A model generated the notes under the pieces. It was not told where the DNA came from. It ran no database searches and saw only the letters and a program-made list of their open reading frames with translations. From Rhynchopus sp. YZ270_cl-10 (taxonomy: Eukaryota), in contig OZ037839.1 in the NCBI GenBank assembly GCA_964035575.1, positions 620,001-684,000 on the forward strand: a stretch of DNA of 64,000 bases, read 5' to 3'. A program made the position numbers and the translations under genes. Positions 11,871 to 31,666 of this stretch are shown here, piece by piece. Every line of letters starts with the position of its first letter. Position 1 is the first letter of the stretch.

Positions 11871-13223
11871 CTAACCCTCCAAATGCCCTTGCTTGTCATG
11901 CTCCTGTTTGTCCAGTTCCTGCTTGTCCTCGTCCTCTTGTGCTTGCATCAAACCTTCTCCTTCTTGTCCTGCTTTCAATGCAATACATTGTCTTGCATCT
12001 CCAGACACGTCTGTTCGTACCAGATCTTCTGTCCGCACACCTCCGAACTGTTCCGTAAACCTTGCGTAAATGTCACGCACACATGCATCGAAGGTCTTCG
12101 TGACGCCAAAGCCATGGTTCTTTTGGGCTTCATTCGGGAGAGACATCTCGTGAATGTCGATGTTGCCTGGCAAGACGACTGTTGTGAGTGCGTTGCAGTT
12201 ACCCAGGAAGTAGGGCTCGATCTCTGTGTCACTGGCAATACCTGACATGTCCAGCGTGGTCAAGGATGTGCAATCTTGTAGGAAATTCATACCAATGCTC
12301 TTAACATTGATCAGTCCTGATAAGTCTGCTGTTGTCAACGCGGAGCACTCTTGCATCCAGCTGTCCTCAATTTCGGTCACATTGGTCATCCCTGAAAAGC
12401 TGATGGTGGTCAACGACGTGCAGTAGGTAAGAAAGCAGCAGCCGATCCTCGTGACACTGCAAAAAGCTGATAAATCAATGGTTGCCAACGAGGTGCAATA
12501 CGAGAGGAAGTTGTGCTCAATGTGCGTGACTCTGCGCCATCCTGAGATGTCAATCCTTTTCAGCGACTTGCAGCGGTGGAGGAAGTAGTCACCAACCGTC
12601 GTCACACTCGTCATCGCGGATAAGTCAAGCTCTGTGACGCCACTTTCTTTGAGGAACGAGTTCCCTATCACCGTCACACCAGTGAACCCTGACACGTCAA
12701 GGCTCGTCAACGATTTGCAACTAGAGAGAAAGAGTCCCTTGATGTGCGTAACGTTGCACAATCCCGACAAGTCAACGGTTTCCACCGACGCACACTCGAA
12801 GAGGAATCCACGCTCAATTCGCGTCACCCCAGACACAGCAGAGAGATCAAGTCTCGTAAACGATGCTTCCGACAAGAACCGGTTCGGGATAACAGTCGCA
12901 ACCTCCGCCTGAAGAAGCAGAGAAGCCACCTCAGGATCCTTCACAGTCGACAACCTCGCTTCGGAAATGTCTGTCTCACCCAAGGCACGAAGTGCCTCAA
13001 GAGATTGGTACTTCGTCGACTTCGTCAACACGACTGTGTCTCCAGCACTCAGTTCTGTGATGTCCTCTCCTTCCTCCTTCCCTCCGAAGCCCATGTGGAA
13101 GCTGTCTTCGCACAACCCTGTTGCAGTCGCCACCTTCTGCCGCATCGTCTCCGTTGTGTCATCCTCACCCACCTCAATCACGAATTTGGTGTCATCATCA
13201 TATCCCTGCACACACAGTTCCAT
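11871..13223 (-). CDS. Ubiquitin-like domain + LRR protein (copy 3, longer LRR plus C-terminal extension)
   Basis: UBL N-terminus nearly identical to copy 2, followed by about 10 divergent 25-aa LRRs. Confidence 0.85.
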   Translation of the reverse strand: MELCVQGYDDDTKFVIEVGEDDTTETMRQKVATATGLCEDSFHMGFGGKEEGEDITELSAGDTVVLTKSTKYQSLEALRALGETDISEARLSTVKDPEVASLLLQAEVATVIPNRFLSEASFTRLDLSAVSGVTRIERGFLFECASVETVDLSGLCNVTHIKGLFLSSCKSLTSLDVSGFTGVTVIGNSFLKESGVTELDLSAMTSVTTVGDYFLHRCKSLKRIDISGWRRVTHIEHNFLSYCTSLATIDLSAFCSVTRIGCCFLTYCTSLTTISFSGMTNVTEIEDSWMQECSALTTADLSGLINVKSIGMNFLQDCTSLTTLDMSGIASDTEIEPYFLGNCNALTTVVLPGNIDIHEMSLPNEAQKNHGFGVTKTFDACVRDIYARFTEQFGGVRTEDLVRTDVSGDARQCIALKAGQEGEGLMQAQEDEDKQELDKQEHDKQGHLEG

Positions 13224-14076
13224 TGTTTCGAGTGAAGTGTTGCTCTGTTGTGGGGTGGTGTTGAGAAGGAGGAGGAGGGAGGCAAGATACAACAAAATAG
13301 CTTTCTTATTTGCCTTTCAAGAGGCAGCGACATTGCAGTTGTGTCAACACGTTTGTCCTGGCGCAAAAGAAGGCAAGAATGCAGAAAAGGATAAGCTCAT
13401 ATCGGCAGACCACAACTCGCTTCGCAAGGAAGAAAAGAAATGAGAATTTGAAACGTCGTGCACACACATCTTTACCACCATCGTTATCGCGCTGGAACAC
13501 GTTGTGTTTGAAGATAGGCTGTCTGTCTATCACAAACGTGCTTTTCATGGAATCAGTGTTTTATTTCCCACCCCAACAACAACGATAAAGCGTGAAGACA
13601 ATAGATAAAAGCAAATAAGTAATTTTTAGGTTTTGTGAGGCACTCAACGAAGTATGCCGGCTCTGTGGCGTCACGGAGCCACCAACACTCCCCAGTCATT
13701 TTTCCTGCGCATCCAGGAAAACTCGCAGTATGCGACCAGGAAACGAAAAGATTTTTCTTCACAGTAACAAAGTGTGAGGAAGAAGAAAAGAAAGCGAATA
13801 AAAACGAAAAAACAGTGTTTTTCTGAATGTGATGTTGTTGTTGGGGTGAGGAGAATAAAACAGTTCCAAGAAAAGCTCCTGCGTCGGTTTTCTTTTGGTT
13901 AAAAAAAATCATCCGAGAACCGGATTGTATGCTTACATCAGTCTCATGCAAACCTGCTAAGACTTATCCAGATTTGGAATGTTCTTATGGATCGGATCAC
14001 CTGCGCCTGCTTTGCCCCAACCTTCGTGCAGCAGTAGCAGTGTTCGTGGTGACCGAGGCGCTGTCTCATCGGCATA

Positions 14077-14544
14077 TTATGCTTCTGCACACCCTTCCCC
14101 TTTTTTTTTCGCCTTCTCCATCACTGTGTCGTCATACTCATCAGCAACAAACGCAGGGATTGTGTGCCCCGATGCAATCAGAAGCGCGACGGCGTCACGC
14201 CTGACTGAAGGGTGGATCCGATCTGTTGCGGGGCGGGGAAGAAGCTTGAGGACGATGCCGGGTGCTGGGAGGACCACGTCTCGCACGAAGGCCTCATCGT
14301 CAAAGAGCTGCGATGGGAAGAAACGTACGATGCGTCTCCTCCGTTGGGCAAGCTTCTGCAGCAACACCTTGTCCCGACGCAACGCTGGGCTGAGACAGCG
14401 GTACACCTCACGTGGCGACACATCCTTGCAGTTTGCGATCCGCACTGCGGGGCTCAGTGCAGAAACAGTCATGAGTCCTGTGTGATGCAGCGTTCGCATG
14501 GGGTAAAAGCTGCAGTGTGAAAGGGCTCCCATATACAGCTTCAT
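14077..14544 (-). CDS. 155-aa hypothetical protein, possibly DUF4116-like (copy 1 of 3)
   Basis: Intact in three near-identical copies. YRCLSPALRRDKVLLQKL...RFFPSQLFDDEAFVRDVV resembles the DUF4116 repeat pattern. Confidence 0.5.
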   Translation of the reverse strand: MKLYMGALSHCSFYPMRTLHHTGLMTVSALSPAVRIANCKDVSPREVYRCLSPALRRDKVLLQKLAQRRRRIVRFFPSQLFDDEAFVRDVVLPAPGIVLKLLPRPATDRIHPSVRRDAVALLIASGHTIPAFVADEYDDTVMEKAKKKGEGCAEA

Positions 14545-14883
14545 GGAAAGAAGTTCACGAAACGAACGTAAGCCTCTCGTGCGTGGTCACATTGAAAAAG
14601 TGAAACAAAGTGAAATACCCCCCATTCTCTATTTTGCTGTCGTCCTGCTCTTTGTTCATCGTATCCATCCTCTTTGAAACCCCAAAAGACCCGAAAAACC
14701 CTGGAAACCCCATATTGAAAAACCTACTGTGAGGAAGAACTGAGAGTCTCATTACAAGGGTGGAGTGAAATGAACCGGTGGCAAGGTGAAGGCCATCCAT
14801 TTGTGTTGCAACCTCCACCACCCGCCCAAACACACCCAATAATCCTAACACCCCAATTCCCACTCCCGCTTTCTTTACTGGCC

Positions 14884-15835
14884 CTAAAAACCAACGTCAC
14901 CTAGTCTGCTGCGTACAACGTTGCTACACTTGTCCATTCCGTCTACTTTCGACAACCTTTTGCAGTTGTAGAGAAACCTACCACCAATCGTGGTGACTGC
15001 TTGCAGGCCGGTGAAGTCCACTTCCGACAACGATGTGCAGTTGTAGAGAAACCCCTCACCAATCGTGGTGACTGCTTGCAGGCCGGTGAAGTCTACTTCC
15101 GACAACGATGTGCACTCGGAGAGAAAATCATCACCAATCGTGGTGACTTCTTGCAGGCCGGTGAAGTCCACTTCCGACAACGATGTGCAGTTGTAGAGAA
15201 ACCCCTCACCAATCGTGGTGACTGCTTGCAGGCCGGTGAGTTCCACTTCCGACACCACCATCAGCTTTTCAGGGATGACCAATGTGACGGATATTGAAGA
15301 CAGCTTTTGTGCGGACTGCAACATTTCGCAGTTGTAGAGAAAATAATCACCAATCGTGGTGACTGCTTGCAGGCCGGAGAAGTCCACTTCCGACAACGAT
15401 GTGCAGTTGTAGAGAAACCCCTCACCAATCGTGGTGACTGCTTGCAGGCCGGTGAAGTCCACTTCCGACAACGATGTGCAGTTGTAGAGAAACCCCTCAC
15501 CAATCGTGGTGACTGCTTGCAGGCCGGTGAAGTCCACTTTCAACAACGTGCTGTTGGAGAGAAACTTGTCACCAATCGTGGTGACGCAGGGTAATGCAGG
15601 CAGGTGCAGTGTGATGCCACAGTTGTCCTCCACATTGGGTACGCAACTGAAACCAATGCGCGTTACGTCACTACGTGAGAAGAACTCTTCTGGAATCTCA
15701 GTCGCAACTTCTGCCTGAAGAAGCAAGCTGGCCACCTTCGGATCGTCCACCTGCTGCAACCTTTCTGCTGTGATGTTTGTCTCACCCAATGCATGAAGAG
15801 CTGATATGGCTTCGTACTTCATCGTTTTCGTCAAC
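14884..15835 (-). pseudogene. 3' (linker + LRR) half of the UBL-LRR gene interrupted by the retrotransposon
   Basis: Begins LTKTMK-YEAISALHALGE, i.e. continues the 5' half at 24845-25056. It has 8 LRR units and is near-identical to copies at 26372, 30812 and 48644. Confidence 0.9.
15817..15835. repeat. Target-site duplication, copy 1 (cttcatcgttttcgtcaac)
   Basis: An identical 19-mer lies at 24844-24862; the intact paralog (~49439-49457) has a single copy. Confidence 0.95.
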
Positions 15836-15905
15836 CGTGGGGGCCCGTTTTCGATGCATGCACCCCTATCCGAGATAGGTGATACAATACATCGTGGAGG
15901 TGATG

Positions 15906-18900
15906 TTACATAAGTCCATCACCGCCCCTGCTGTGCCCATCCTTCTGCTTCGTCTGCTTCTTCTTGAAGAAGCCTCCCAGCGTCGTCTGTCGCCCCTTCG
16001 AGGTGTCGTGGTGGCGGCGGCAGCAGTGATCCAGCGTACTCTTCTCTTGCACACAGTTCCCGCACCTCGAGAGTCTATGCTTAGTGCATGCTTCGTGTCG
16101 GATCGGTAACCCGTCGTCGTTGGAGTGGTGCGCAAAGCAGCAATGCATCAGGTCTGCCTGGGCGTTCTTCGAGCAGGCATCACACTTCGTCTTCCGGTGC
16201 AGCACACATATCGCAAACTGGAAGATCGGAACCGCTCCTTCAGGTGCCTTCACGGGTGCGTCCCCTGGACGCACGTGCTCATGGTGCCGGTAGCGAGCAT
16301 GCGCAGATGTCTCCTGTTCAGCCCGCTGGATGAATGGTAGTGCCCTCCTGCCCCTAACTTCTGTGGAGGGGTACGCCGTCTCAGCAGAATACTCCCCCAT
16401 CCATGTACCTCTCGCTCTATCGCCACCACGGAGCTCCGCCTCAGACATGCCTTCGGAGCTGCGTTGCAGACGGTACGCCACACCAGCATCGTATAGCGCA
16501 CGCAATGCCTTCAACGTTTCTTCTCCGCCGGCAAAGATAGGACGGCGGTCGATGCCTGTGATGGCGTTCGCCCCAAACGAAGCGAGAACATGCGTTACCT
16601 TCACCTTCCCCGGATGGAGAGAGCTCTCCGAAAAGGTTCTGAGTGAAGCCAACATATGCCCAAAGGTGGTCGTCTTCGCCATTTCTCTGTGGACCAGCGC
16701 TACTGGCACCACGTCGTCATCATCGTCGTCTTCCTCACTCCCGTCGTCTTCCCCCCCATTGTTGACTTCTTCCCCAGTCCCATCCCTCGGCTGCTTCAGC
16801 TTCGGCGCTATTCTGCCGGTCTTGTCCCCAGGTCGGATGTCCATCCCTGTGGCAACCTCGAAGTCGATGAGCAGCTCCATGTGGGAGACTTCACGTCCAG
16901 CTTCGTCGCTCCATTGTAAACCACCCAGCCAGGAGGCAAACGCCAGCAGCAGCGCACGTCCATACGGCCACCTCCTTTTCAGGGGGGTGTAGTCCACCAA
17001 ACTGTTCGCGTGTTGCGTCGTCGTGTCCAACTCCGGCGCCCACGTCCACGGGTATCGGTCTTCTTGCAGTCGCGGGTTCGCCGCTTCCGGTCTGCTCCAC
17101 TTGGAGCGTGCGATGAGGATGCGCACCATCATCTTCTGCAGGTCTGCAACACGGGCGCATTCCAAAGGTGTGTCCGGTGTGCACATGCCGCAGATAGCGA
17201 GACAGTTTGGCCAGGTCGTTCTGTCAATGTCCAACAGCAAGGGGTACTCCGCACGAATGCTACTCCATGCTTCACATTCCCACCACAAGTGTTTGTGATT
17301 TTCGTCCACCCCCGCTTCGCAGTGCACGCAGATGGCCGAGTCCCGTATGCGCGCTCTCGCAAGTCGCACCCCCGTTATCGCACCGTCAGCTACAATGTGT
17401 CGCAGCGTCCCCGCCTCGTAATCCGTCAAAGTTTTGCTTCGGGTGAGAGCAAGGGTTTTCTCCTTATCCACCCCCGCTTCAATACCCTTCAGGTTAGCTC
17501 TGCCTTTGCCATTGGCCTTCGCAGTCGTCTTCGTACGGGAGAGTCGAATGAAGAACATCCGTTCTCGCACAACGTGGCCCAGTCTGCCCAAGCTTACTGT
17601 CTTCACATCAACGATGCTCCCATCGTGCGTTTTCACTTTTGTCGTGTCTATCCATGACCACGCAAGGCGGCTGAGGGCTCGCGCAATCAACCCGATGGGT
17701 CCTCCAGTCTTCGCCTGCTTCGCTTTCGCACGTGACCTGCACTTTTCGACCAGCAAACAGATCTCATCCGATTTGCGTATCATCGCCGCCCACGTCATGA
17801 TCCTTCTGTAGTCGAATGCCACCGAGGGGTCGAGCAGATGGCCTTTCTCGAAGACATTCAGCATGACCGGTACGCTTCTTCGGTTCATCTTGTTCACGCC
17901 GTGGACCCCTTTCTCCACTGCAGTTGCAAGACTGTTCACGTATTTCCCAGGTGGGTCCTGCACCGTGATACCGTACACAGATTTCGACATCACTGCAGCC
18001 TGCATGATGCCTGCTTTCTCACCTTGAGTCAGCGGGAGGCATCCCACCTTACCTGCTAGCGGTCCGCATGCGTCGATGGTGTCTTCCAGCTTCGTCGGGA
18101 GCGTGGGCGTCCCAGCCTGTCGGGCCTGCACCGTCGCCCCCAGGCACTCCGACTTCTCGACGCGAGTAAGATCCGCGCCGTTCATCTGCACAGTTTCCTC
18201 TTCATCAGGACGGTTGCTCTGCCACGTGCTCTTCCCCGCGTGGACGCGTTGTCCCGTCAAGTCTGCAAAGTGTCCGGTGAAGGCGACACCCGCTCGCAGC
18301 TGGTCGAGGGTCTTCGTCAGGAGGTTGGTGTCGTCAGCATACGCCAGCCCCTGCGTGCCCGTTTCCTTCTCCACCCCGTTCATCCACACCGCCACCAGCG
18401 CATTCAGGAAGATTACGCTCAGTGGGCATCCTTGGAGGATACCATTCGTCGCAAACCATTCTTTGCCAAGACCTGCCGGAAGTTTGAAACGCCTCCCCAG
18501 CTTCTTGTATATACCCCGGATGGGGCGCATCATGTTGTCGGGAAGACCCAACCGTTCGACGAGCTGGAACATGATCTCTTGGGGAACACGGTCAAAGCAC
18601 TTCTGATAGTCGAAGGAGGCTAGATAGATAGGTGTGTCGTCTATCAGAGCCTCCTCCATCTTCGCACAGAGAAACCACAGCAGGTCTTCGGTTCCGTGTT
18701 TGTTCCGGAAGCCGTGTTGCCGCTCGTGAATCCAGGATTCCTGCCACGTCGCCACTTTGCGGAGTCGAGTCGCCGCCCATAACCTGTACATCACACTGGT
18801 GATGGTAATGGGTCGCTGCTTCAGGGGCTCCTCGCCTTCTCCTTTGGGGATGAGCACCACCAACGCCCTCGCAATCACCCTGGGCCAGTTCCCAGTATCC

Positions 18901-19397
18901 TCGATCAGGTTCAGGCAGCGCGCGAGTTCCTCCAGCAGTGTCAAAGGCAGTTCCTTCAGCTCCTCCACCCTCCACCCATCGAGGCCTGCCGCCTTTTTCC
19001 GCTTCATCTTGCCGATGGTCGTACGGAGGTCTTCGGCGGTCAGGGGTTCGCATACACAAGGGGCCCCTTCAGGAATGTGTTCCTTGAACCTATCAAAGAA
19101 CGTCGTCCACGCAGGTTCTTCGGAATCGTCGTACATCCGGAACACCCCACCCCAAGCACGGTCATCCATGAGCAGTTCATCCATCTCCTGGAGGTTAGCT
19201 GTAACCGTGCCGTCCTCCCGTTTCAGGAACGTGGTGTGTGACGACGTAGCCTTCCGCAGGAACGAGAACACCTTCGCTGGGTTCACCTTCATGTGTTCCT
19301 TCATTGTGCGGCGCCATTCCTTGATGCGGGCCCGACGCCGTTGCTCCAGCAGGACAAAACCCCTCTTCTTCAAGCAGCCAAGGCCCACACAACGCCT
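15906..19397 (-). CDS. ORF2 C-terminal part: reverse transcriptase, zf-RVT-like finger, tandem Cys/His module, PIP box (frameshifted relative to APE)
   Basis: Motifs KAAGLDGW, RPITIT, QHGFR, FDYQKCFDRV, GILQGCPLS, YADD and CVHC..ENHKHLWWEC, with C-terminal QTTLGGFF. Confidence 0.93.
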   Translation of the reverse strand, partial: RRCVGLGCLKKRGFVLLEQRRRARIKEWRRTMKEHMKVNPAKVFSFLRKATSSHTTFLKREDGTVTANLQEMDELLMDDRAWGGVFRMYDDSEEPAWTTFFDRFKEHIPEGAPCVCEPLTAEDLRTTIGKMKRKKAAGLDGWRVEELKELPLTLLEELARCLNLIEDTGNWPRVIARALVVLIPKGEGEEPLKQRPITITSVMYRLWAATRLRKVATWQESWIHERQHGFRNKHGTEDLLWFLCAKMEEALIDDTPIYLASFDYQKCFDRVPQEIMFQLVERLGLPDNMMRPIRGIYKKLGRRFKLPAGLGKEWFATNGILQGCPLSVIFLNALVAVWMNGVEKETGTQGLAYADDTNLLTKTLDQLRAGVAFTGHFADLTGQRVHAGKSTWQSNRPDEEETVQMNGADLTRVEKSECLGATVQARQAGTPTLPTKLEDTIDACGPLAGKVGCLPLTQGEKAGIMQAAVMSKSVYGITVQDPPGKYVNSLATAVEKGVHGVNKMNRRSVPVMLNVFEKGHLLDPSVAFDYRRIMTWAAMIRKSDEICLLVEKCRSRAKAKQAKTGGPIGLIARALSRLAWSWIDTTKVKTHDGSIVDVKTVSLGRLGHVVRERMFFIRLSRTKTTAKANGKGRANLKGIEAGVDKEKTLALTRSKTLTDYEAGTLRHIVADGAITGVRLARARIRDSAICVHCEAGVDENHKHLWWECEAWSSIRAEYPLLLDIDRTTWPNCLAICGMCTPDTPLECARVADLQKMMVRILIARSKWSRPEAANPRLQEDRYPWTWAPELDTTTQHANSLVDYTPLKRRWPYGRALLLAFASWLGGLQWSDEAGREVSHMELLIDFEVATGMDIRPGDKTGRIAPKLKQPRDGTGEEVNNGGEDDGSEEDDDDDDVVPVALVHREMAKTTTFGHMLASLRTFSESSLHPGKVKVTHVLASFGANAITGIDRRPIFAGGEETLKALRALYDAGVAYRLQRSSEGMSEAELRGGDRARGTWMGEYSAETAYPSTEVRGRRALPFIQRAEQETSAHARYRHHEHVRPGDAPVKAPEGAVPIFQFAICVLHRKTKCDACSKNAQADLMHCCFAHHSNDDGLPIRHEACTKHRLSRCGNCVQEKSTLDHCCRRHHDTSKGRQTTLGGFFKKKQTKQKDGHSRGGDGLM

Positions 19398-20910
19398 CTA
19401 TCCCAGGAAGGTCGAGGTCCCAGGTGTCACTCTTCAGTAGATGCTTCTTCTTGCGGATTTTCGCCCACAGCTGCCGTTCGTTCAACGATTCTGCAGATGG
19501 CTGACCGAAGCGCTTCCTCCGATCACCAATGAGCTGCTCCATCTGACGACATGTCTTCTGCAGTTGAGCCGTCTCCAGGTTCACAGCATCCGGCGTGTCG
19601 CAGTCCATGCGGGCCGTCCGATGTCGGAGAACGTCGGGTTGCACCTCCCCTCTCCCCCTGTGGCGTTGTTGCTTCGGGTCTGAGTCTGCAGCACCTCTCT
19701 TCAGCAGGTAGTCCTCCGCAATCTTGCAGAAGCGTGCCCAGCGATCTTCAACCGACATCTTCGTCAGGTCGGCTTCAGGGGCAGCGTTCTCCTGCATCAC
19801 CTTCGCTGCAAGCTCCTTCTCCTTCTTCGCCGGCCATTTCGTCCAGTCGTCGCCGATCAAAGAAAGGGGAGGGCGTGCCTGCGGTGCCTTCTGCTCGTAT
19901 CGCGTCAGGTCTAACGTCAACACCACCGGTCTGTGTACCGGGAGGCAGCTCTCTTTCCAGACCACCACTTTGGAGATCGCAGGGGCAGCCACGTGGTTCG
20001 CCAGCACCAAGTCGATACGTCTGCCAGACGATGTGGAGGTATAGCATGTGTTCTCTGCTGCCTTACCCAACTGCTGTGCGTAGGTATCTGCCGCATCAAC
20101 CCATTTGCCGGAGGAGATGGCCGCTCGAATGGCTAGACTTTCGTTAGCCTCTACGTTGAAGTCTCCGGCAATGAACACCGGTATGTCCCCAAGGCTGGCT
20201 GCTTCTTCAAAGATGCCTGTCAGGAGTTGCTCCGTGCGGTCGCTGTCAGCACACACACCATAAAACGAGAACACAGAGATGTTACGTCCCCCGCTCCCAT
20301 ATGCCACCTGCGCATGCGTAAAGCGGCATTCGTTCCACGCTTGTTGGGCACATTGTGGCGGTACTGCTCTGGTCGGTATGTCAGCGCACGTCATGATCGC
20401 AACTCCACCATTCTGCGTGCGCGTGCGCAGAGGGTCTGATCCCTGGCTTCGTCTGCAAGGGGCACCAAAGAGAAGCTGCTTGGCACCATACCCCTTCACG
20501 TCGTTTGCTGCCCCCTTCATCTCTTCTTCTGTGAGGCGCACCTCCTGCAGAGCACAAACGTCCACATCCCACTCCCCCACCGCAGGGTGTGCCCTCAGAG
20601 ACGTCACGTTTGCCGTGCCAAGCGACATGGTCGACGGACCCGGATGCTCCTCCACGTCTCCACATGTCAGCAGTGACCCCCTGCCCAAAAACGCCCCTCG
20701 TCGCCTCCCTCGACGCACCCTGTGTCCGACCCCTCGCCCCACCCCCCTTCGCGTTCTACCCTTACCCCTTGTCCCCGACAGCATACAGCCCGCAGAGCGC
20801 AAACGATGCTGACCCCTTGTTGGGGAGACAGTTTTCACAAAAACGTCTCGTTCTCCAACTACGCACGAAGAAGCCAATCCTGTGCCGTACCCTTCCACCG
20901 CACCACACCG
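19195..20910 (-). CDS. ORF2 N-terminal part: linker, 2A-like peptide and apurinic endonuclease (APE) domain
   Basis: GRGSLLTCGDVEEHPGP followed by TANVTSL, ALQEVRL, IAGDFNV, RRIDLVL and PVHRPV. The frame opens immediately after the ORF1 stop. Confidence 0.88.
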   Translation of the reverse strand, partial: RCGAVEGYGTGLASSCVVGERDVFVKTVSPTRGQHRLRSAGCMLSGTRGKGRTRRGVGRGVGHRVRRGRRRGAFLGRGSLLTCGDVEEHPGPSTMSLGTANVTSLRAHPAVGEWDVDVCALQEVRLTEEEMKGAANDVKGYGAKQLLFGAPCRRSQGSDPLRTRTQNGGVAIMTCADIPTRAVPPQCAQQAWNECRFTHAQVAYGSGGRNISVFSFYGVCADSDRTEQLLTGIFEEAASLGDIPVFIAGDFNVEANESLAIRAAISSGKWVDAADTYAQQLGKAAENTCYTSTSSGRRIDLVLANHVAAPAISKVVVWKESCLPVHRPVVLTLDLTRYEQKAPQARPPLSLIGDDWTKWPAKKEKELAAKVMQENAAPEADLTKMSVEDRWARFCKIAEDYLLKRGAADSDPKQQRHRGRGEVQPDVLRHRTARMDCDTPDAVNLETAQLQKTCRQMEQLIGDRRKRFGQPSAESLNERQLWAKIRKKKHLLKSDTWDLDLPGIEALCGPWLLEEEGFCPAGATASGPHQGMAPHNEGTHEGEPSEGVLVPAEGYVVTHHVPETGGRHGYS

Positions 20911-23900
20911 TCACCGCCCCACATCGCGCAGGGTGTTGCGGCCTACCAACCTGTTGTCTAGTCCCTGGACGGGACGAAACGCGATCTCGATGACGTCCCC
21001 CGCTACCTTCACGACAGTCACCGGGATGGCTGCGCCGTTGCCTCCCTCCTCGCAGTACTCCATGGAGTCGCCAGCCTCCAGCACTGCGTTCCCGTACGAC
21101 TCCTCGTTCTTCTCGTTCCCCTCCGCCTGCTCTTTTGCGGGGACTTCCGTCCGCATCCTGCGCGGCGGACTCAGCAGCGCCACCGTCTCACCGGACTCAC
21201 TGCGGTCTTCCCGCTTGCCCGCCAGGGTCACGGCAGGTGGCGCCACCGGCACTCTGGGAGCTGGCGAGGTCTCCGCGTCCTCCTCGACAGCCGCACAGTC
21301 TGGCGATGTCTGCACCGGCAGTGCCATGTCGGCGTCGTCCATCCGTGCCTCGGCGTCTGGTGTCGTGGGTGCGGGGGTCCCTGCGCCGGCGTTCTCCCCT
21401 TGCTCCTGCTCACGTTGTGCCTGCACTGCTGCAGCACGTCTCTCCTTCTTTGCCGCCGCTTCTTCCTGTGCTGCCCGTAGTGCCTCCCGTCGTTTCTCAG
21501 CGGCCACAATGTTCCTGCGTTTCTTCTTCTTCTTCGGGGACGCCACCACTACCTCCACATCACCGGCGCCAGCAACGTCCGCAGTCGGCGATGTGTCCCT
21601 GGGCGGTGCTGACCGCGACCGGTTCCGTGCTTCGGCGACTTCTACGACTACCCCCGGCTTTCCACGGATGGTGTCAGCCCTCCTCCTCCTGCGGCGCGGG
21701 CTCAGCTCCTCAACCTCACTGGACCCATTTCCCGCACGTATCCGCTTACCTGCCATCGTTGCGGGCTCCGGTGACATCACGTCCTCGGCATTCCCGTCTG
21801 GGAGTGTGTCCAACAATTCATCCGCCATCTGCATCTCGGGTGTTGTGGGCGCTGCAGTGGGCACTGCGACAGTCGGGGCCGTAGTAGCAGCAGCCTCCCC
21901 CTCGCGCTGCCTGGCGTTCTCAGCAGCAACTGCAGCAGCGGCGGCGGCGGCTTCCTCCTCCTGCTGCCAGAGGATTGCAGCAGCAGCGTCGGCTTCCTCA
22001 CGCTGCTTGAGGACTGCAGCAGCGGCGGCCTTCTCCTCCTCCTCACGCTGCCTCAGGGCTGCAGCAGCAGCGGCCTTCACCTCCTCCTCGCGCTGCTTGA
22101 GGGCTGCGGCAGCGGCGACCTCCTCCTCCTGCCTCAGGGCTGCAGCAGCAGCGGCCTTCACCTCCTCCTCACGCTGCTTGAGGACTGCAGCAGCGGCGGC
22201 CTTCACCTCCTCCTCACGCTGCCTCAGGGCTGCAGCAGCAGCGGCCTTCACCTCCTCCTCGCGCTGCTTGAGGGCTGCAGCAGCGGCGGCCTTCGCCTCC
22301 TCCTCACGCTGCCTCAGGGCTGCAGCAGCGGCGGCCTTCACCTCTTCCTCACGCTGCTTGAGGACTGCAGCAGCAGCGGCCTTCGCCTCCTCCTCACGCT
22401 GCCTCAGGGCTGCAGCGGCGGCGGCCTTCGCCTCCTCCTCCTCCTCCTGCCTCAGGGCTGCAGCAGCAGCGGCCTTCACCTCCTCCTCACGCTGCTTGAG
22501 GACTGCAGCAGCAGCGGCCTTCGCCTCCTCCTCACGCTGCCTCAGGGCTGCAGCGGCGGCGGCCTTCGCCTCCTCCTCCTCCTGCCTCAGGGCTGCAGCA
22601 GCAGCAGCGGCGTCCTCTCTCGCAGCAGCCGTGGCCTCCTTCGGCATGGAACAGAGCTTGCCCACTTGCTCCAGCATGGCCGCCATCCACACCTGCTGCT
22701 CCTTCCGTTGCTCCACCCGTTCTTCCCGCAACTGGGCCGTCAGCGACGCCACCGTCTCCTGCAGCAGGGTCTGGAGGCGCTCGCCCACCAGGCGGTCCAA
22801 CCTCTCCTCCATCCGGCGCTCCAACTCCGCCCACTTCTCGCCTGCGTCCTCAGGTGATGGGGCGGGCGACGTCATTGGGGGTTGACCCTTCGGCGTCCGT
22901 TGCTTCGTTGTTGTTGTTGTTGTTGGTGGAGGTGTCCTTGATGTGGTAGTGGGTGGCTTCGCTGCAGCTGGCGCTGTTGCTGCTTGGCGTGCGTGCGCAG
23001 CCCAGGACACCCAACCGTAGTCGGGCCCAGTGCCACGGTTGTGCTGCGCTGTCGCCGCCGGCGCCGTCCGGGCACCAAATGTCGGACCAGACGCATGTGC
23101 GGTATGTACCTTGGCCTTCTGTTTCGCCCCCGGACCCGGAGCCGTTGCCCTACCCCCGCCCTCCTTATGCCCATCCTTGCGGATCAGCAGCCCCTTCCCG
23201 TTCCCCTCCATGTCCATGGCCCACGTCGGCGGATCCAGCTTCGCTCCCACCACCCAACGCCATCCCTCCAGCCTCCGCAGCGGCGTCACCGTCCACCCTG
23301 CGCCTGCCAGCGACTCCATCACCGCTTCACCGGACGTACCCGACGGGAAACCGGACACCACGTATCGACCTTCGGGCGCCTTTCCCTCCTGCATGAGTGC
23401 CGCATTTGCACGCTCCTGATCCTCCTTCTTCACCCGTATCCCCAGGGACTCGTACCTCGCCGCCACTCCCCATCCCCCCATCCGGGTCGCCAGCCCCTGG
23501 GCCTCTTCTAGCCCCACCCCGTCCACCAACCACACGACAGGCAGATGCTCCGACTGCTCGCGTCTCATCCGGAAGAAGACACCCCCCTTCCCACTCTGCT
23601 TCAGGCAGCGCTCTGCTACGTCCTCCCTTACGTCGGCCACCGAGGAGATCAGCTTACCCTCCTGCCACAATGGTGGGCGGTTGAGGTTGCACCCCACCTC
23701 CGCACGCATCTTCTTCCCCGCTGACACCAGGTCCTGCGCTTGTCCTGCTGTCGGCCTCATCGTCACAAACACCGTCACCAGTTGGACGGCCGCCGACGCC
23801 TTCTTCCCCCCGTTTCCTCTCCCCGGCCTCAGCCTCCCCACCACGTACACGGCCGTGCTCGCCGCCCCGTTCACCTTCCCCCCATTCCCCTGCTTACCCA

Positions 23901-24723
23901 TGGGGCACTGCATCTTCTCCCCACCAGACTTCGGGAAGGACCCGAAACCCACCCACGTCACGCCCGGCGTGCGCGCGATCTTCCCCTCTGCCTCTACCTC
24001 TCTACCCTGCGGCACAAGACAGACCCCCTCCGACTTATCCACCACCTCCCCCCACGGCACAAGCGTCGATCCCACCCACTCCGATTGCAGCAATGTCAGC
24101 GCTGCCGTCGTCTTCTTTTTCCCTCCCCCCTGGGTGAAGCCCCCCTCCGTCCCCGCCTTCGCATCGTTTCGCGGTTGCGGCACGGTGTACGGCTTCTCCG
24201 TCACCTCCAACGCACCCCCCACCATCGCCTTGCGGGCCCGGTCTTCGGCGGCTTCTTCCCCCGTGCTCGTGGGGAGGACGCACAGGTAGTGGCATGCGTC
24301 CACGTACGCCACCGTCACCGCTGCACCGCTGCCCTTCTCCTTCGGGTGCACCTTCAGCACACGCACCTCCCCATCCTTCACCGAGAAGGCATACACCTCC
24401 CGCATCAGCACCTCCGCCAACGCCTTCAGGGTCAGGTGGTCCCCCCAGGACCCCTGCTTCGCCATCGCCGAGCAGTACCTCCGGTAGGCGGACGGTCCTC
24501 CGTCAACGTGCTCACCCCAATTCTCCGCTTCCCGTTCCAACACCCCCACCGCCATCTCCCTCAGCCCCCCGTGCGCCGTGGCGTCTCCGTGCACAGCCAT
24601 CGAGACCGCCTTAAATTGGCAGTCTCCGTTCCCCCCTGCGTCCTTTACCCGCATGTCGAAGCCCCTCAGGTATTTCTGCAGCACCCCCTTTTCCCCCCCT
24701 TGGCCACCTGCCCCTCCGCACAT
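20911..24723 (-). CDS. Retrotransposon ORF1: OTU-family cysteine protease, RRM-like region, Ala/Glu-rich coiled coil
   Basis: GGNGDCQFKAVS...WGDHLTLKALA...AYVDACHY is an OTU catalytic Cys/His pattern; RYVVSGFP is an RNP2-like motif; it also carries (KAAAAAALRQREEE)n. The first element-internal ATG is at 24723. Confidence 0.82.
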   Translation of the reverse strand: MCGGAGGQGGEKGVLQKYLRGFDMRVKDAGGNGDCQFKAVSMAVHGDATAHGGLREMAVGVLEREAENWGEHVDGGPSAYRRYCSAMAKQGSWGDHLTLKALAEVLMREVYAFSVKDGEVRVLKVHPKEKGSGAAVTVAYVDACHYLCVLPTSTGEEAAEDRARKAMVGGALEVTEKPYTVPQPRNDAKAGTEGGFTQGGGKKKTTAALTLLQSEWVGSTLVPWGEVVDKSEGVCLVPQGREVEAEGKIARTPGVTWVGFGSFPKSGGEKMQCPMGKQGNGGKVNGAASTAVYVVGRLRPGRGNGGKKASAAVQLVTVFVTMRPTAGQAQDLVSAGKKMRAEVGCNLNRPPLWQEGKLISSVADVREDVAERCLKQSGKGGVFFRMRREQSEHLPVVWLVDGVGLEEAQGLATRMGGWGVAARYESLGIRVKKEDQERANAALMQEGKAPEGRYVVSGFPSGTSGEAVMESLAGAGWTVTPLRRLEGWRWVVGAKLDPPTWAMDMEGNGKGLLIRKDGHKEGGGRATAPGPGAKQKAKVHTAHASGPTFGARTAPAATAQHNRGTGPDYGWVSWAAHARQAATAPAAAKPPTTTSRTPPPTTTTTTKQRTPKGQPPMTSPAPSPEDAGEKWAELERRMEERLDRLVGERLQTLLQETVASLTAQLREERVEQRKEQQVWMAAMLEQVGKLCSMPKEATAAAREDAAAAAAALRQEEEEAKAAAAAALRQREEEAKAAAAAVLKQREEEVKAAAAAALRQEEEEEAKAAAAAALRQREEEAKAAAAAVLKQREEEVKAAAAAALRQREEEAKAAAAAALKQREEEVKAAAAAALRQREEEVKAAAAAVLKQREEEVKAAAAAALRQEEEVAAAAALKQREEEVKAAAAAALRQREEEEKAAAAAVLKQREEADAAAAILWQQEEEAAAAAAAVAAENARQREGEAAATTAPTVAVPTAAPTTPEMQMADELLDTLPDGNAEDVMSPEPATMAGKRIRAGNGSSEVEELSPRRRRRRADTIRGKPGVVVEVAEARNRSRSAPPRDTSPTADVAGAGDVEVVVASPKKKKKRRNIVAAEKRREALRAAQEEAAAKKERRAAAVQAQREQEQGENAGAGTPAPTTPDAEARMDDADMALPVQTSPDCAAVEEDAETSPAPRVPVAPPAVTLAGKREDRSESGETVALLSPPRRMRTEVPAKEQAEGNEKNEESYGNAVLEAGDSMEYCEEGGNGAAIPVTVVKVAGDVIEIAFRPVQGLDNRLVGRNTLRDVGR
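21950..22610 (-). repeat. ~45-nt coding minisatellite (KAAAAAxLxQREEEx)n in ORF1
   Basis: More than a dozen imperfect 15-aa units seen directly. Confidence 0.9.
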
Positions 24724-24759
24724 CGCGTCGAGGCTGCCCCCCGCCGCCGTCCTTCTTCC

Positions 24760-24844
24760 CCGCGCTTTAGCAGACGCCTCCCCCCATAGAGGAGGGGGGC
24801 GTCTCCCGAGGGTACCCCGTGGAGGCGCGTCGTCTCTCACCCTC
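24760..24844 (-). ncRNA. HDV-like self-cleaving ribozyme at the retrotransposon 5' end
   Basis: Minus strand: P1 GAGGGU/ACCCUC; P2 CG(A)CGC/GCGCG; P3 GCC/GGU; L3 UCCACGG; P1.1 CC/GG; P4 AGACGCC..GGCGUCU; J4/2 GCUAAA. G1 coincides with the TSD boundary. Confidence 0.8.
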
Positions 24845-25056
24845 TTCATCGTTTTCGTCAACACGACTGTGTCTCCAGCACTCAGTTCTGTGATGTCCTC
24901 TCCTTCCTCCTTCCCTCCGAAGCCCATGCGGAAGCTGTCTTCGCACAACCCTGTTGCAGTCGCCACCTTCTGCCGCATCGTCTCCGTTGTGTCGTTCTCA
25001 CCCACCTCAATCACGAATTTGGTGTCATCATCATATCCCTGCACAAACAGTTCCAT
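24845..25056 (-). pseudogene. 5' (UBL) half of the interrupted UBL-LRR gene, in frame with retrotransposon ORF1
   Basis: MELFVQGYDDD...VVLTKTMK runs without a stop into the element sequence RVRDDAPP. Confidence 0.9.
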
Positions 25057-25563
25057 TGTTTCGGGTGAAGTGTTGCTCTGTTTTGGGGTGGTGTTGAGAA
25101 GGAGGAGGGAGGCAAGATACAACAAAATAGCTTTCTTATTTGCCTTTCAAGAGGCAGTGACATTGCAGTTGTGTCAACACGTTTGTCCTGGCGCAAAAGA
25201 AGGCAAGAATGCAGAACAGGATAAGCTCATATCGGCAGACCACAACTCGCTTCGCAAAGAAGAAAAGAAATGAGAATTTGAAACGTCCTGCACACACATC
25301 TTTACCACCATCGTTATCGCGCTGGAACACGTTGTGTTTGAAGATAGGCTGTCTGTCTGTCACAAACGTGCTTTTCATGGAATCAGTGAAAAAAATCATC
25401 CGAGAACCGGATTGTATGCTTACATCAGTCTCATGCAAACCTGCTAAGACTTATCCAGATTTGGAATGTTCTTATGGATCGGATCACCTGCGCCTGCTCT
25501 GCCCCAACCTTCGTGCAGCAGTAGCAGTGTTCGTGGTGACCGAGGCGCTGTCTCATCGGCATA

Positions 25564-26371: not shown

Positions 26372-27379
26372 CTAAAAACCAACGTCACCTAGTCTGCTGC
26401 GTACAACGTTGCTACACTTGTCCATTCCGTCTACTTTCGACAACCTTTTGCAGTTGGGAAGAAAATAGTCACCAATCGTGGTGACTGCTTGCAGGCCTGT
26501 GAAGTCCACTTTCGACAACGATGTGCAGTTGCAGAGAAACCCGGCACCAATTGTGGTGACTGCTTGCAGACCGGTGAAGTCCACTTCCGACAACGTTTCG
26601 CAGTTGTAGAGAAAATCATCACCAATCGTGGTGACTGATTGCAGGCCGGTGAAGTCCACTTCCGACAACGATGTGCAGGAGAAGAGAAAAGAATCACCAA
26701 TCGTGGTGACTGCTTGCAGGCCGGTGAAGTCCACTTCCGACAACATTTTGCAGTTGCAGAGAAAATAATCACCAATCGTGGTGACTGATTGCAGGCCGGT
26801 GAAGTCCACTTCCGACAACGTTGTGCAGTCGGAGAGAAACCCGTCACCAATCGTGGTGACTGCTTGCAGGCCGGTGAAGTCCACTTCCGACAACGGTGTG
26901 CAGTTGTAGAGAAACCCGCCACCAATCGTGGTGACGCAGGGTAATGCAGGCAGGTGCAGTGTGATGCCACAGTTGTCATCCACATTGGGTACGCAACTGA
27001 AACCAATGCGCGTTACGTCACAACCTGAGAAGAACTTTTCTGGAATCTCAGTCGCAACTTCTGCCTGAAGAAGCAAGCTGGCCACCTTCGGATCCTCCAC
27101 CTGCTGCAACCTTTCTGCTGTGATGTCTGTCTCACCCAATGCATGAAGAGCTGATATGGCTTCGTACTTCACCGTTTTCGTCAACACGACAGAGTCTCCA
27201 GCACTCAGTTCTGTGATGTCCTCTCCTTCCTCCTTCCCTCCGAAGCCCATGCGGAAGCTGTCTTCGCACAACCCTGTTGCAGTCGCCACCTTCTGCCGCA
27301 TCGTCTCCGTTGTGTCGTTCTCACCCACCTCAATCACGAATTTGTTGTCATCATCATATCCCTGCACACACAGTTCCAT
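26372..27379 (-). CDS. Ubiquitin-like domain + LRR protein (7 LRR units)
   Basis: Intact ATG-initiated ORF with 75-nt repeats encoding LSEVDFTGLQAVTTIGxxFLxxC. Confidence 0.9.
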   Translation of the reverse strand: MELCVQGYDDDNKFVIEVGENDTTETMRQKVATATGLCEDSFRMGFGGKEEGEDITELSAGDSVVLTKTVKYEAISALHALGETDITAERLQQVEDPKVASLLLQAEVATEIPEKFFSGCDVTRIGFSCVPNVDDNCGITLHLPALPCVTTIGGGFLYNCTPLSEVDFTGLQAVTTIGDGFLSDCTTLSEVDFTGLQSVTTIGDYFLCNCKMLSEVDFTGLQAVTTIGDSFLFSCTSLSEVDFTGLQSVTTIGDDFLYNCETLSEVDFTGLQAVTTIGAGFLCNCTSLSKVDFTGLQAVTTIGDYFLPNCKRLSKVDGMDKCSNVVRSRLGDVGF

Positions 27380-28149
27380 TGTTTCGAGTGAAGTGTTGCT
27401 CTGTTGTGGGGTGGTGTTGAGAAGGAGGAGGATCGTTATCGCGCTGGAACACGTTGTGTTTGAAGATAGGCTGTCTGTCTATCACAAACGTGCTTTTCAT
27501 GGAATCAGTTTTTATAGTCCCCTTTGTAAACCACATTGTTTTGTTCTTCCTTTTTGCTTTCAACCTTTTTTATTCATTTACTTTTTTGTTGTTTGGGAGA
27601 CACGCCCTACGTGTCGGTTCTGTGGAAAGACCAGCACGGAACCACCTGCGTGCTCCCTTTTCATGTCGATCCATGAAAACTGTATCACAAGTGATACCGG
27701 AAAAAAAGTTTGTAAATTGCGGAAGACGCAAAACAAACTCGCGAACGAAAAAAGGGTTTTTTCTGCGAAGTGGTGGTAATGGGGAGAATAAAACATTACT
27801 TTTCTTTCCTTACTTCAAAAACTCTCTCTTTTTTAAGTTCTAATTATTTGGTTTTGGTTGAGACACATCTATGGTGTCGGTTCTGTGGAATCACTGAACC
27901 ACCCATATCCTGTATCATATCGTTGATTATTCTTTCCCTGCGTTGACTGCAGGAAAGTTCGCGAGCTATCGCGACCAGGAAATGGGACTTTTAAAGCAGC
28001 AATAAAGACAATATAACACTAGGTCAATAGTAGTTCAAAGTTATCCGAGGGAGAGAAGCATCCCCACGAAGAAAAAGCAAACATGAGAATAACATCTGCA
28101 TAGGTAGCACATCCGAGGTTGCGTGTCTGCACACTACCAACAACAGCCT

Positions 28150-29545
28150 CTCGCAGTCGACCCGAGTCGCACTGCTCCCATGGATCATTAATATGAAACA
28201 TAACACACGAGTTAAAAGAGACACGCAGGGGTTACATAGGTAAAAATTGGATGATAAGGTGAGTCAACCCGAGCCACACTGCTCCCGTTACACCTTTATT
28301 AGAGAAAAAACAGACCCATGCGACAAGGAGAAGAAAAACAGAAGAATTGCTTGACATACAGCTCACCACAGGTTGCCTGTCAGGACCGACCTGCAAAATT
28401 TCGCACAACCTAAGTGACATAACACATGAGTGCATAAAAACAGGAAAAGGATACACAACTAAAAACATGGCGATAAGACGTAAAACCATGCGCATGGTCC
28501 AAACAAAGATTGCGTGTCGGCTGCGTCCGCACACTATCAACGATTCTCTCGCAGTCGAACCGAGTCGCCCTGCTCCCGATGACACATTGGTTACATACCA
28601 CACAAATTAAAAGAAATCACAGGGGTTACATAGGTAAAAGATAAGATGATAAAATGCGTCGACCCGAGCCACATTGCTCCCGTTGCAGCTTTTTTAGTGA
28701 GAAAATAAACCCATGCAACAAAGAGAATACGAAAAACAGAAAAATGCTTGACATACAGCTAAAGTATGCCACCCTAGGTTGCTTGTCAGATAGTAAATCC
28801 TAACCTGCTAATTCCCGCAACCTATTGTAGTCGTACCCGTGACGCACTACACCCCCTTTGGCTTTTAAGGAGGCAGGTACACATCGGCGAGAATGGAGTG
28901 TAAAGCCCGAAGCCCACTGCCATTATCCTCTCGCGTAGTCGAACCCCAGTCGCACTACTACCGATGTGGCACATCAAGAGTTGCGTGTCGGATCGCTCCT
29001 GCACACTGCCCAACTCCCGTAGTCGACCCGAGTCGCACTACTACCACGATGTGACTTCACACACACACAAGCTGACTAATTGAATTTTTGACCCCACTCT
29101 GTGAGTCTTGCTTGAATTGGAAAAAAAAAATGAGGGGAAACAAAGAAAAACGTACCGTACACTCTCTGTTGAATCTAAAACAGGGGAGGGTAAAGAAAGC
29201 GCGAAAGGTAAATTGGGGAAGAGGTTGAAAAGTTGGAACGCTTCCTCGCCCCAGATCACACAATGAACATTAAACACAACAAAAAATGACAGTACTCGTT
29301 TCCGAGCACACACACTATTACAGTCACTCGACCCGAAAGAGCCCAATCTTTGGTTTGTATATATCCGTACCACCGTACACGTACCGCTTCGTATGTTTGT
29401 ACCCTCCAGAGCAAAGAATGCAACAAGAAAAACAAAAATATGCACAACATCGGCGAGAATGGAGTGTCGAGCACGAGGCTCACTGCCATCATGACCTCGC
29501 GTAGTCGAACCAGTCGCACTACTACCACGATGTGACTTCACACAC
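28150..29545. repeat. Dispersed array of about 8 degenerate hairpin motifs (g(c/t)agtcgacccgagtcgcact(g/a)c) with nested local duplications
   Basis: Copies near 28153, 28261, 28551, 28657, 28827, 28935, 29019 and 29501. Confidence 0.75.
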
Positions 29546-30002
29546 AACAAAATGAAAACGCTATTTGAACAAGAACAACAACAAGCTTCAAGGGTGGGAT
29601 GGTGGGATTTTTAAAAAAAGATGAAAAGCAGAGAGTTAAAAAAGGAGAAAGAACAGCAAAAAACGTTGTGTGAAAAAGTTTTTTCCTGTCAAGTGTTTTT
29701 GTGCGTTAGCGGAGAAGAAAACAGTTTTCGATAAAAGACTCCTGCGTCGGTTTTCTCTTTCACAGAAAAAACCTCCACTCTCATTTCGCAAGCTTCATTT
29801 CCGTTTTGGTTTTCTCCTCACAGAAAGAAATCATCCGATAACCGGATTGTATGCTTACATCAGTCTCATGCAAACCTGCTAAGACTTATCCAGATTTTTG
29901 TGGAATGTTCTTATGGATCGGATCACCTGCGCCTGCTCTGCCCCAACCTTCGTGCAGCAGTAGCAGTGTTCGTGGTGACCGAGGCGCTGTCTCATCGGCA
30001 TA

Positions 30003-30470
30003 TTATGCTTCTGCACACCCTTCCCCTTTTTTTTTCGCCTTCTCCATCACTGTGTCGTCATACTCATCAGCAACAAACGCAGGGATTGTGTGCCCCGATG
30101 CAATCAGAAGCGCGACGGCGTCACGCCTGACTGAAGGGTGGATCCGATCTGTTGCGGGGCGGAGAAGAAGCTTGAGGACGATGCCGGGTGCTGGGAGGAC
30201 CACGTCTCCCACGAAGGCCTCATCGTCAAAGAGCTGCGATGGGAAGAAACGTACGATGCGTCTCCTCCGTTGGGCAAGCTTCTGCAGCAACACCTTGTCC
30301 CGACGCAACGCTGGGCTGAGACAGCGGTACACCTCACGTGGCGACACATCCTTGCAGTCTGCGATCCGCACTGCGGGGCTCAGTGCAGACACAGTAATGA
30401 GTCCTGTGTGATGCAGCGTCCGCATGGGGTAAAAGCTGCAGTGTGAAAGGGCTCCCATATACAGCTTCAT
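30003..30470 (-). CDS. 155-aa hypothetical protein (copy 3)
   Basis: Near-identical to the other two copies, with the frame preserved. Confidence 0.5.
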   Translation of the reverse strand: MKLYMGALSHCSFYPMRTLHHTGLITVSALSPAVRIADCKDVSPREVYRCLSPALRRDKVLLQKLAQRRRRIVRFFPSQLFDDEAFVGDVVLPAPGIVLKLLLRPATDRIHPSVRRDAVALLIASGHTIPAFVADEYDDTVMEKAKKKGEGCAEA

Positions 30471-30811
30471 GGAAAGAAGTTCACGAAACGAATGTAAGCC
30501 TCTCGTGCGTGGTCACGTTGAAAAAGTGAAACAAAATGAAATACCCCCCATTCTCTATTTTGCTGTCGTCCTGCTCTTTGTTCATCGTATCCATCCTCTT
30601 TGAAACCCCAAAAGACCCGAAAAAACATCGAAAACCCGCGTATTGAAAAAACTGCTGTGAGGAAGAACTGAGAGTCTCATTACAAGGGTGGAGTGAAATG
30701 AATCGGTGGCAAGGTGAAGGCCATCCATTTGTGTTGCAACCTCCACCACCCGCCCAAACACACACAATAATCCCAACACCCCAATTCCCACTCCCGCTTT
30801 CTTTACTGCCC

Positions 30812-31666
30812 CTAAAAACCAACGTCACCTAGTCTGCTGCGTACAACGTTGCTACACTTGTCCATTCCGTCTACTTTCGACAACATTTTGCAGTTGGAGA
30901 GAAAATAGCCACCAATCGTGGTGACTGCTTGCAGGCCGGTGAAGTCCACTTCCGACAACGTTGTGCAGTTGGAGAGAAACCCGCCACCAATTGTGGTGAC
31001 TGCTTGCAGGCCGGTAAAGTCCACTTCCGACAACGATGTGCAGGAGAAGAGAAAATAATCACCAATCGTGGTGACTGCTTGCAGGCCGGTGAAGTCCACT
31101 TTCGACAACGTTGTGCAGTTGTAGAGAAACCCGCCACCAATCGTGGTGACTGCTTGCAGGCCGGTGAAGTCCACTTTCGACAACAATGTGCTGTTGGAGA
31201 GAAACCCGCCACCAATCGTGGTGACGCAGGGTAATGCAGGCAGGTGCAGTGTGATGCCACAGTTGTCATCCACATTGGGTACGCAACTGAAACCAATGCG
31301 CGTTACGTCGCTACGTGAGAAGAACTCTTCTGGAATCTCAGTCGCAACTTCTGCCTGAAGAAGCAAGCTGGCCACCTTCGGATCGTCCACCTGCTGCAAC
31401 CTTTCTGCTGTGATGTCTGTCTCACCCAATGCATGAAGAGCTGATATGGCTTCGTACTTCACCGTTTTCGTCAACACGACAGAGTCTCCAGCACTCAGTT
31501 CTGTGATGTCCTCTCCTTCCTCCTTCCCTCCGAAGCCCATGCGGAAGCTGTCTTCGCACAACCCTGTTGCAGACGCCACCTTCTGCCGCATCGTCTCCGT
31601 TGTGTCATCCTCACCCACCTCAATCACGTACTCCTTTTCTCCAAAACCCTGAACAGTCAGTTCCAT
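30812..31666 (-). CDS. Ubiquitin-like domain + LRR protein (5 LRR units)
   Basis: MELTVQGFGEKEYVIEVGEDD... start, with the same LRR class as 26372. Confidence 0.88.
   Translation of the reverse strand: MELTVQGFGEKEYVIEVGEDDTTETMRQKVASATGLCEDSFRMGFGGKEEGEDITELSAGDSVVLTKTVKYEAISALHALGETDITAERLQQVDDPKVASLLLQAEVATEIPEEFFSRSDVTRIGFSCVPNVDDNCGITLHLPALPCVTTIGGGFLSNSTLLSKVDFTGLQAVTTIGGGFLYNCTTLSKVDFTGLQAVTTIGDYFLFSCTSLSEVDFTGLQAVTTIGGGFLSNCTTLSEVDFTGLQAVTTIGGYFLSNCKMLSKVDGMDKCSNVVRSRLGDVGF

Follow-up and report, generated by a model that had tools for sequence, protein, structure and literature searches.

A T2A-like peptide and a candidate readthrough stop codon in series between ORF1 and the APE-RT region of a Rhynchopus non-LTR retrotransposon

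The DNA analysed here, hereafter the window, is a stretch of 64,000 nucleotides from Rhynchopus sp. YZ270_cl-10 (contig OZ037839.1, positions 620,001 to 684,000). Its minus strand carries a full-length APE-type non-LTR retrotransposon of about 9.0 kb (15836..24843), delimited by a 19-bp target-site duplication (3′ copy at 15817..15835; 5′ copy at 24844..24862) and identified by its domains; its flanks match uninterrupted paralogs of the host gene, six of which were checked within the window. The element sits in sense orientation within a gene of the family that joins a ubiquitin-like (Ubl) domain to a BspA-type LRR region. Self-comparison identified 24844-25388 and the region below 15835 as the two halves of one such gene, the former matching the paralog at 13011-13558 with 97% identity. 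In this copy, the host ubiquitin-like N-terminus (24844..25056, minus strand, ATG at 25056; PF00240, E 1e-3) is joined in frame to ORF1 of the element, and the rest of the interrupted gene encodes the BspA-type LRR (14884..15835, minus strand; PF13306, E 1e-29). Genes of this family form a dispersed array (6813-15918, 26372-31792 and 48644-49753) with at least seven members of variable repeat number. The window also includes a 1177-codon ORF on the minus strand (32111-35644), which has no Pfam match, and a gene for a cytochrome b5-fused fatty-acid desaturase (4674-6227).

ORF1 (20911..24843, minus strand) has about 1300 codons, the first AUG of the element being at 24723, and encodes an OTU domain, a middle domain and Ala/Glu-rich coiled-coil-like repeats. 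The OTU-like cysteine protease domain (24289..24633; PF02338, E 9e-10) presents the GDCQF and CHY motifs, and an Atlas search with the middle domain returned no match. The Ala/Glu/Lys-rich tandem repeats (21900-22640) have no counterpart in the ORF1 of a divergent subfamily, referred to here as subfamily B, and ORF1 length varies among the copies P0089, P0090 and P0091. ORF1 ends with a TGA (20913-11), which is in frame with 92 open codons ending at the Pro of a 2A peptide. The TGA is followed by CGG, and the two form a candidate readthrough site (20908..20913). The open linker after the TGA (20689..20910) is Arg/Gly-rich in its second half, and the 2A peptide (20635..20688) leads into ORF2.

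The APE endonuclease domain of ORF2 (19954..20628, minus strand; PF03372, E 1e-10) is followed by the rest of this ORF (15906..19397, stop TAA at 15908-06), which includes the RT domain (18201-18851; PF00078, E 1.5e-19) and then a Cys/His-rich C-terminal region. Among PDB sequences, the best matches are LINE-1 ORF2p and R2 RTs. The two parts are separated by a frame break (19382..19383), where the window's copy lacks 2 nt that the dominant contigs of runs X1, X2 and X3 carry at full depth. Since these runs have the extra nucleotides and P0052 is an intact ORF2 of 1664 aa, APE and RT form one ORF in the family, and the break is peculiar to the window's copy or its assembly. The order of APE and RT in one ORF, the target-site duplication and the occurrence of 5′-truncated copies (P0007 and P0046) are those of an APE-type non-LTR element. 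Its 3′ end (15836-15905) has a short UTR, without a poly(A) tail before the duplication.

A host-derived N-terminus was found in 5 of the 31 proteins compared. Three are full-length, with the host part in frame with ORF1 (P0089, which is the window's copy, P0090 and P0091), and two are 5′-truncated (P0007 and P0046). In all five fusions, the in-frame class being the one detectable in this way, the junction lies where the ubiquitin-like domain ends (LTKTxK or LTKTKN), and because every visible fusion falls at one site, the sequences suggest that insertion would be specific for a single position in the Ubl/BspA-LRR family. P0093, the ORF1 protein assigned to subfamily B, has five residues that match neither source. 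A similar preference is known from the RHS hot spot of ingi/RIME (PMC7563717), where a multigene family is likewise hit at a single position of its 5′ coding region; the target here is the unrelated Ubl/BspA-LRR family, and the evidence consists of five in-frame fusions. A literature search on target specificity returned nothing specific beyond RHS.

The first 40 codons of the element (24724-24843), which precede its first AUG, contain no stop when read in the frame of the host gene, and a similar stretch is present in P0093. Translation of the element may depend on the start codon of the host, or the sequence may be constrained by a hairpin in this region. The predicted fold of the first 144 nt was no better than that of shuffled sequences (z -0.22), and an Rfam scan of 15700-25200 (E<=5) found no ribozyme family and no HDV-like match, only two matches at chance level.

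The original prediction for this locus was a peptide almost identical to viral T2A, with an Asn-to-His variant, immediately before the start of APE, and both its identity and its placement were confirmed. The minus strand from 20688 to 20635 reads LGRGSLLTCGDVEEHPG followed by Pro, directly ahead of STMSLGTANV, and the PF03372 domain continues in the same frame three codons after the peptide. In the complete peptide, LGRGSLLTCGDVEEHPGP, skipping is predicted to occur after Gly (20640-38) and ahead of Pro (20637-35), and its His16 is encoded by CAT (20646-44, minus strand). In a by-eye comparison, 16 of its 18 residues are identical to the peptide labelled T2A in the supplement of PMC13405545. 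The octapeptide DVEEHPGP agrees with the core D(V/I)ExNPGP at seven of eight positions, and the Leu-rich tract with Gly before Asp that characterizes class A peptides is present as GRGSLLTCG, as in T2A. The peptide, whose translation we infer, is in frame with APE-RT and conserved in amino-acid sequence, as in class A. A six-frame search of the window gives a single occurrence of the octapeptide pattern D[VI]Ex[NH]PGP, where residue frequencies predict 0.0002.

T2A of Thosea asigna virus and the related class A peptides, which resemble that of the element at 16 of 18 residues, are viral, whereas the present peptide stands in a retrotransposon. The 2A sites of five metagenome or virus-type loci (L003, L004, L007, L012 and L023) share 14-16 of 18 residues with it, and only 34-43 of 54 nucleotides, with most of the common residues encoded by other codons, so that a recent transfer is not indicated. 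The metagenome scan yielded 21 loci, of which 15 were translated (all except L008-L010, L018, L019 and L021). Among these 15, L001 and L002 are related retroelements, L003, L004, L007 and L012 share the 2A alone, and the nine others showed no 2A motif, most of them resembling bacterial exonuclease III genes or chance matches. A GTDB scan gave one weak locus and a viral scan one 2A-bearing contig. In the virus-type contig L012, two T2A-like peptides occur in tandem (3686-3922).

Copies of the element were surveyed through protein clusters and run contigs. The dominant contigs that cover both the His codon and the TGA (X2, 20624-21369; X3, 20623-21449; X4, 20623-20986) show no difference from the window, an agreement that describes the majority state only, since contigs drop rare variants. 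Run X8 contributed no contig over the 2A stretch. In cluster 1, 15 of whose 34 members were listed, His is present in both motif-including proteins (P0042 and P0052) and also in P0004 of the window itself. In cluster 2, all seven members of which were listed, both motif-including proteins (P0059 and P0060) have the canonical DVEENPGP; the linker of this Asn type is near-identical to that of the His type, and its ORF2 is 77% identical. Subfamily B, a minor one, keeps His, with two listed changes within the 2A, both synonymous, although the linker just upstream is replaced. This is seen in record 13 of X4 and record 15 of X7, the latter covering the His codon well away from its ends. His is thus the majority state of the element family, and the sister ORF2 type keeps Asn.

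The same site was followed in other elements. In Diplonema papillatum, it is present in 9 of the 15 members listed (of 38), and all nine read GRGSLLTCGDVHENPGP, with His at p14. Among 158 APE relatives, 79 have no visible upstream region, 33 lack the motif and 46 bear it. PMC3708506 describes several clades, most of them lacking ORF1, in which a 2A comes directly before APE. The pattern GD[VI]xx[NHQ]PG was found in 20 of the 158 (N in 16, H in 3, Q in 1, with P0052, P0059 and P0009 among them), and GEAx[NHL]PG in 26 (N in 17, H in 8, L in 1). With 11 of the 46 motif-bearing relatives having His, this residue is recurrent in the clade. An APE tree was built from 76 of the 158 proteins, those with short alignments or an unseen upstream region being dropped, and was used for motif distribution only. 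The motif GEAx[N/H]PGP before APE (for example in P0114, P0134, P0155 and P0184) lies outside the D/G(V/I)ExNPGP core and may represent a further StopGo class.

Known activities give a mixed picture of what His does. PMC3708506 reports DIEQHPGP, a less active form, from 20% of L1Tc copies; N16H lowers activity in both L1Tc and F2A. In PMC12846837, p14=H and p16=H are rare natural viral variants with more than 95% activity in their native context in reticulocyte lysate, and p16=H is described as permissible, although N16H is only modestly active in F2A. Saturation libraries of P2A and F2A include no N16 substitution reaching an activity score of 0.6 (10.64898/2026.09.24.754024), and in class B peptides Asn is more active than His (PMC12338488). 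The peptide of the window itself was not found in the supplements of PMC12846837, PMC12338488 and PMC13405545, where it was looked up for assay results.

These data bear on the possibility that the His peptide mostly stalls, causes fall-off or yields mainly fused product, thereby lowering ORF2p. In its favour, besides the weaker N16H and class B variants, the very peptide that D. papillatum P0009 carries, with His at p14, was classed as 'Falloff Only, Reduced Protein Levels' in HEK293T cells, and its Glu version as 'Skipping/Skipping and Falloff' (PMC13405545). That screen, however, is noisy (a peptide with the T2A core and a different flank was classed as non-skipping, and another p14=H peptide skipped), and the result concerns p14 rather than p16. 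The highly active natural variants in lysate also speak against such an effect, as does the larger size of the His-type ORF2 cluster (34 members against 7), from which His appears compatible with successful transposition. We consider predominant stalling or fusion unlikely. His16 is a natural variant that is tolerated and probably, on a modest balance, lowers efficiency somewhat.

The peptide itself is likely a working StopGo site that would give APE-RT its own N-terminus. It is real, conserved and of a known kind, His included. N16H and the position of 2A before APE are both already known, from L1Tc and the viral p16=H variants; taken by themselves, the 2A and its His are ordinary, and His16 is not a special device of this element. 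The tuning of skipping by His that had been proposed is plausible, but it is not new.

What lies upstream of the peptide is less ordinary. The original prediction had assumed, without evidence, that ORF2 is reached by readthrough of ORF1, and two observations now fit this part of it: the stop is in frame with the downstream ORF, and its context persists in a subfamily that has diverged. The sequence UGA-CGG belongs to the type II context of viral readthrough (PMC3159437), a class defined by UGA-CGG or UGA-CUA in frame with a downstream ORF, and the arrangement is found both in the window and in subfamily B. None of ten other long ORFs checked in the window ends in a stop followed by CGG. The contigs of subfamily B diverge from the window at 20886, and their loose end reads, on the minus strand, Arg-Thr-Lys, TGA and CGG. 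After CGG, six codons replace the eight of the window before the sequences rejoin (-6 nt), and a second spacer measures 108 instead of 69 nt (+39); as multiples of three, both indels keep the frame. P0093, whose ORF1 is 50% identical overall and 37% near its end, terminates in GRTK and was assigned by inference to this loose end, given the shared R-T-K terminus.

A more distant pair of similar contigs that represents one lineage (L001 and L002) has 33-35% identity in APE. Here an upstream ORF, with no BLAST match to any protein in the comparison set, ends in a TGA that is in frame with the Pro and 40 codons ahead of it, the linker is RG-rich, and the first in-frame AUG appears only at codon 104 or 124. 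On the other hand, the stop context of this pair is UGA-UGU or UGA-UGC, without C at +4, which argues against readthrough.

It could be objected that the TGA is an inactivating mutation or an assembly error in a single-ORF element, or that the peptide is vector-derived or a chance match. The window's copy does have the frame break at 19382, and many cluster members are fragments. Nevertheless, the TGA is present in the dominant contigs of three runs, ends ORF1 in P0089, P0090 and P0091 and recurs in subfamily B; the 2A varies synonymously between subfamilies and has a D. papillatum homolog, and the octapeptide is far from the chance expectation given above. An artefactual, vector or chance origin is largely refuted by the run contigs, by subfamily B and by P0089-P0091, and we regard it as very improbable.

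A stronger alternative is that ORF2 is started separately, at an AUG or a near-cognate codon, through termination-reinitiation or on a spliced-leader trans-spliced mRNA. The AUG at 20784, which is in frame and precedes the skip site by 49 codons, is common to His- and Asn-type copies (in the contigs of subfamily B, this position lies in the unlisted end zone), and a second AUG occurs three codons past the Pro of the 2A. The UGA would then be an ordinary stop, and the 2A would trim a 49-aa basic leader off APE-RT, as in L1Tc/ingi and in the small number of 2A elements that have an ORF1. AG dinucleotides with modest pyrimidine content are present at 20860-20817, and reinitiation is reported for SART1 and LINE-1, SART1 needing a downstream structure (PMC5972666). 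Nearly all known elements, CR1s that keep ORF1 included, also have their 2A near the N-terminus of ORF2 (PMC3708506). With translation from the AUG at 20784, the frame of the +39 indel would need no readthrough to explain it, and the evidence for readthrough would shrink to the -6 indel, for which the chance is 1 in 3, and the CGG.

The coding constraint on the linker, which is weak, also counts against readthrough: 4 of the 7 codons changed between the A and B linkers are synonymous, and L001 and L002 differ by 2 synonymous to 3 non-synonymous changes in the linker, compared with 15 to 4 in APE. Separate initiation, however, does not predict the conservation of UGA-CGG or a frame kept across the -6 nt indel, it meets no in-frame AUG between stop and APE in L001 and L002, and the linker is rich in purines, where the host gene's leader is rich in pyrimidines. 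We consider separate initiation a serious competitor, although on these grounds a less than even prospect.

For the 149 nt that begin at the stop, the predicted RNA fold does not surpass that of shuffled sequences (z 0.38), and a short centroid stem in this same region begins 7 nt after the stop. A hairpin predicted from the centroid fold at 20849-20825 (minus strand) has weak support: 4 of its 5 unpaired positions are changed in subfamily B, compared with 1 of the 20 that pair, with p 0.002 locally, for a region chosen after the fact, and p 0.23 over the whole scored zone. Such a hairpin could serve either mechanism, since reinitiation in SART1 also uses a downstream structure.

Readthrough at UGA-CGG followed by StopGo at the 2A is the reading that we favour; judged from the sequences, its chances are about even. 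The layout of ORF1, UGA-CGG, 2A and APE-RT prevails in the family and is found again in a divergent subfamily. Most ribosomes would end at the UGA and yield ORF1p, and a minority would read through to produce ORF1p with an RG-rich tail ending in the 2A. Skipping between Gly and Pro would then set APE-RT free, with Pro as its first residue. Recoding twice in succession could provide the low ratio of ORF2p to ORF1p that LINEs need and leave the RT unfused from an ORF1p of 1300 aa. A wider scheme, in which the two stacked recoding events are combined with an efficiency tuned by His and with sequence-specific insertion at one site of Ubl/BspA-LRR genes, where in-frame fusion would provide the host start, should be taken as tentative, its probability falling a little below even.

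Providence virus combines a 2A peptide with readthrough. The type II sites of alphaviruses, tobraviruses, furoviruses and coltiviruses (PMC3159437) resemble that of the element in the UGA-CGG and in having the upstream protein and the polymerase in one frame; the element differs in that it has no well-supported stem 7-12 nt after the stop and that a StopGo site follows. In the Paramecium group 3 LINEs, ORF1 and ORF2 are also in frame and readthrough of the ORF1 stop was proposed from consensus sequences (PMC5405496), but these form a separate ciliate clade, and the available text of that paper makes no mention of 2A. A combination of readthrough and 2A in a retrotransposon was not found among the titles and abstract openings searched, a coverage that leaves out most subscription papers.

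The RT has 35 relatives at E<=1e-20, the best named being D. papillatum elements (40-44% identity), followed by Polarella and EukProt transcriptome entries, which points to a diplonemid as the likely host; no trypanosomatid protein is named among the 35. The D. papillatum protein P0009, with an ORF2 40% identical, carries GRGSLLTCGDVxENPGP at the same place, a T2A-like peptide equal to that of the element except that its His stands at p14 and not at p16, but 330 repetitive residues are open upstream of its 2A. Another protein of this species, P0014, combines OTU with APE-RT as the element does, but with OTU fused straight to APE in a single ORF and without a 2A. The available text of the D. 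papillatum genome paper (PMC10161547) does not describe such elements. OTU or Josephin domains ahead of 2A-ORF2 are reported in PMC13405545, and a literature search on OTU in LINEs returned nothing specific.

Among described elements, L1Tc/ingi of trypanosomes (Heras 2006, via PMC3708506 and PMC5814959) are also euglenozoan APE-type non-LTR elements and share both the 2A directly upstream of APE and a natural N-to-H variant. Elements of the Ingi/L1Tc type, however, have a single ORF without ORF1, whereas the present one has an OTU-containing ORF1 of 1300 codons with an in-frame stop. A Pr77/HDV-like ribozyme at the 5′ end is a further trait of that clade, and here the Rfam scan showed no HDV-like match at the threshold used. 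The 2A-bearing CR1/L2/Rex1/Crack elements include some that keep ORF1 together with 2A, as this one does (CR1-26_BF, CR1-53_BF and CR1-1_LG), but they belong to other hosts, and an in-frame leaky stop is not described in the accessible portions of PMC3708506.

The translation of ORF2 in two-ORF non-LTR elements is considered an open question (PMC3894237). The 2A was thought to go with the loss of ORF1, and this family keeps its ORF1; what appears new is the series of ORF1, candidate leaky stop, 2A and APE-RT. The family also supplies natural controls, namely His and Asn versions of the 2A that follow near-identical linkers and another type of ORF1 that shares the stop context, and with these natural His/Asn and ORF1-A/B pairs the translation of ORF2 becomes testable with small reporters. 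The modules around the 2A (20540-20913) occur in three combinations: linker A with His and ORF2 of type A, linker A with Asn and the 77%-identical ORF2, and linker B with His. This apparent shuffling, seen across P0052, P0059, P0093, X4 and X7, may point to the 2A as a recombination junction.
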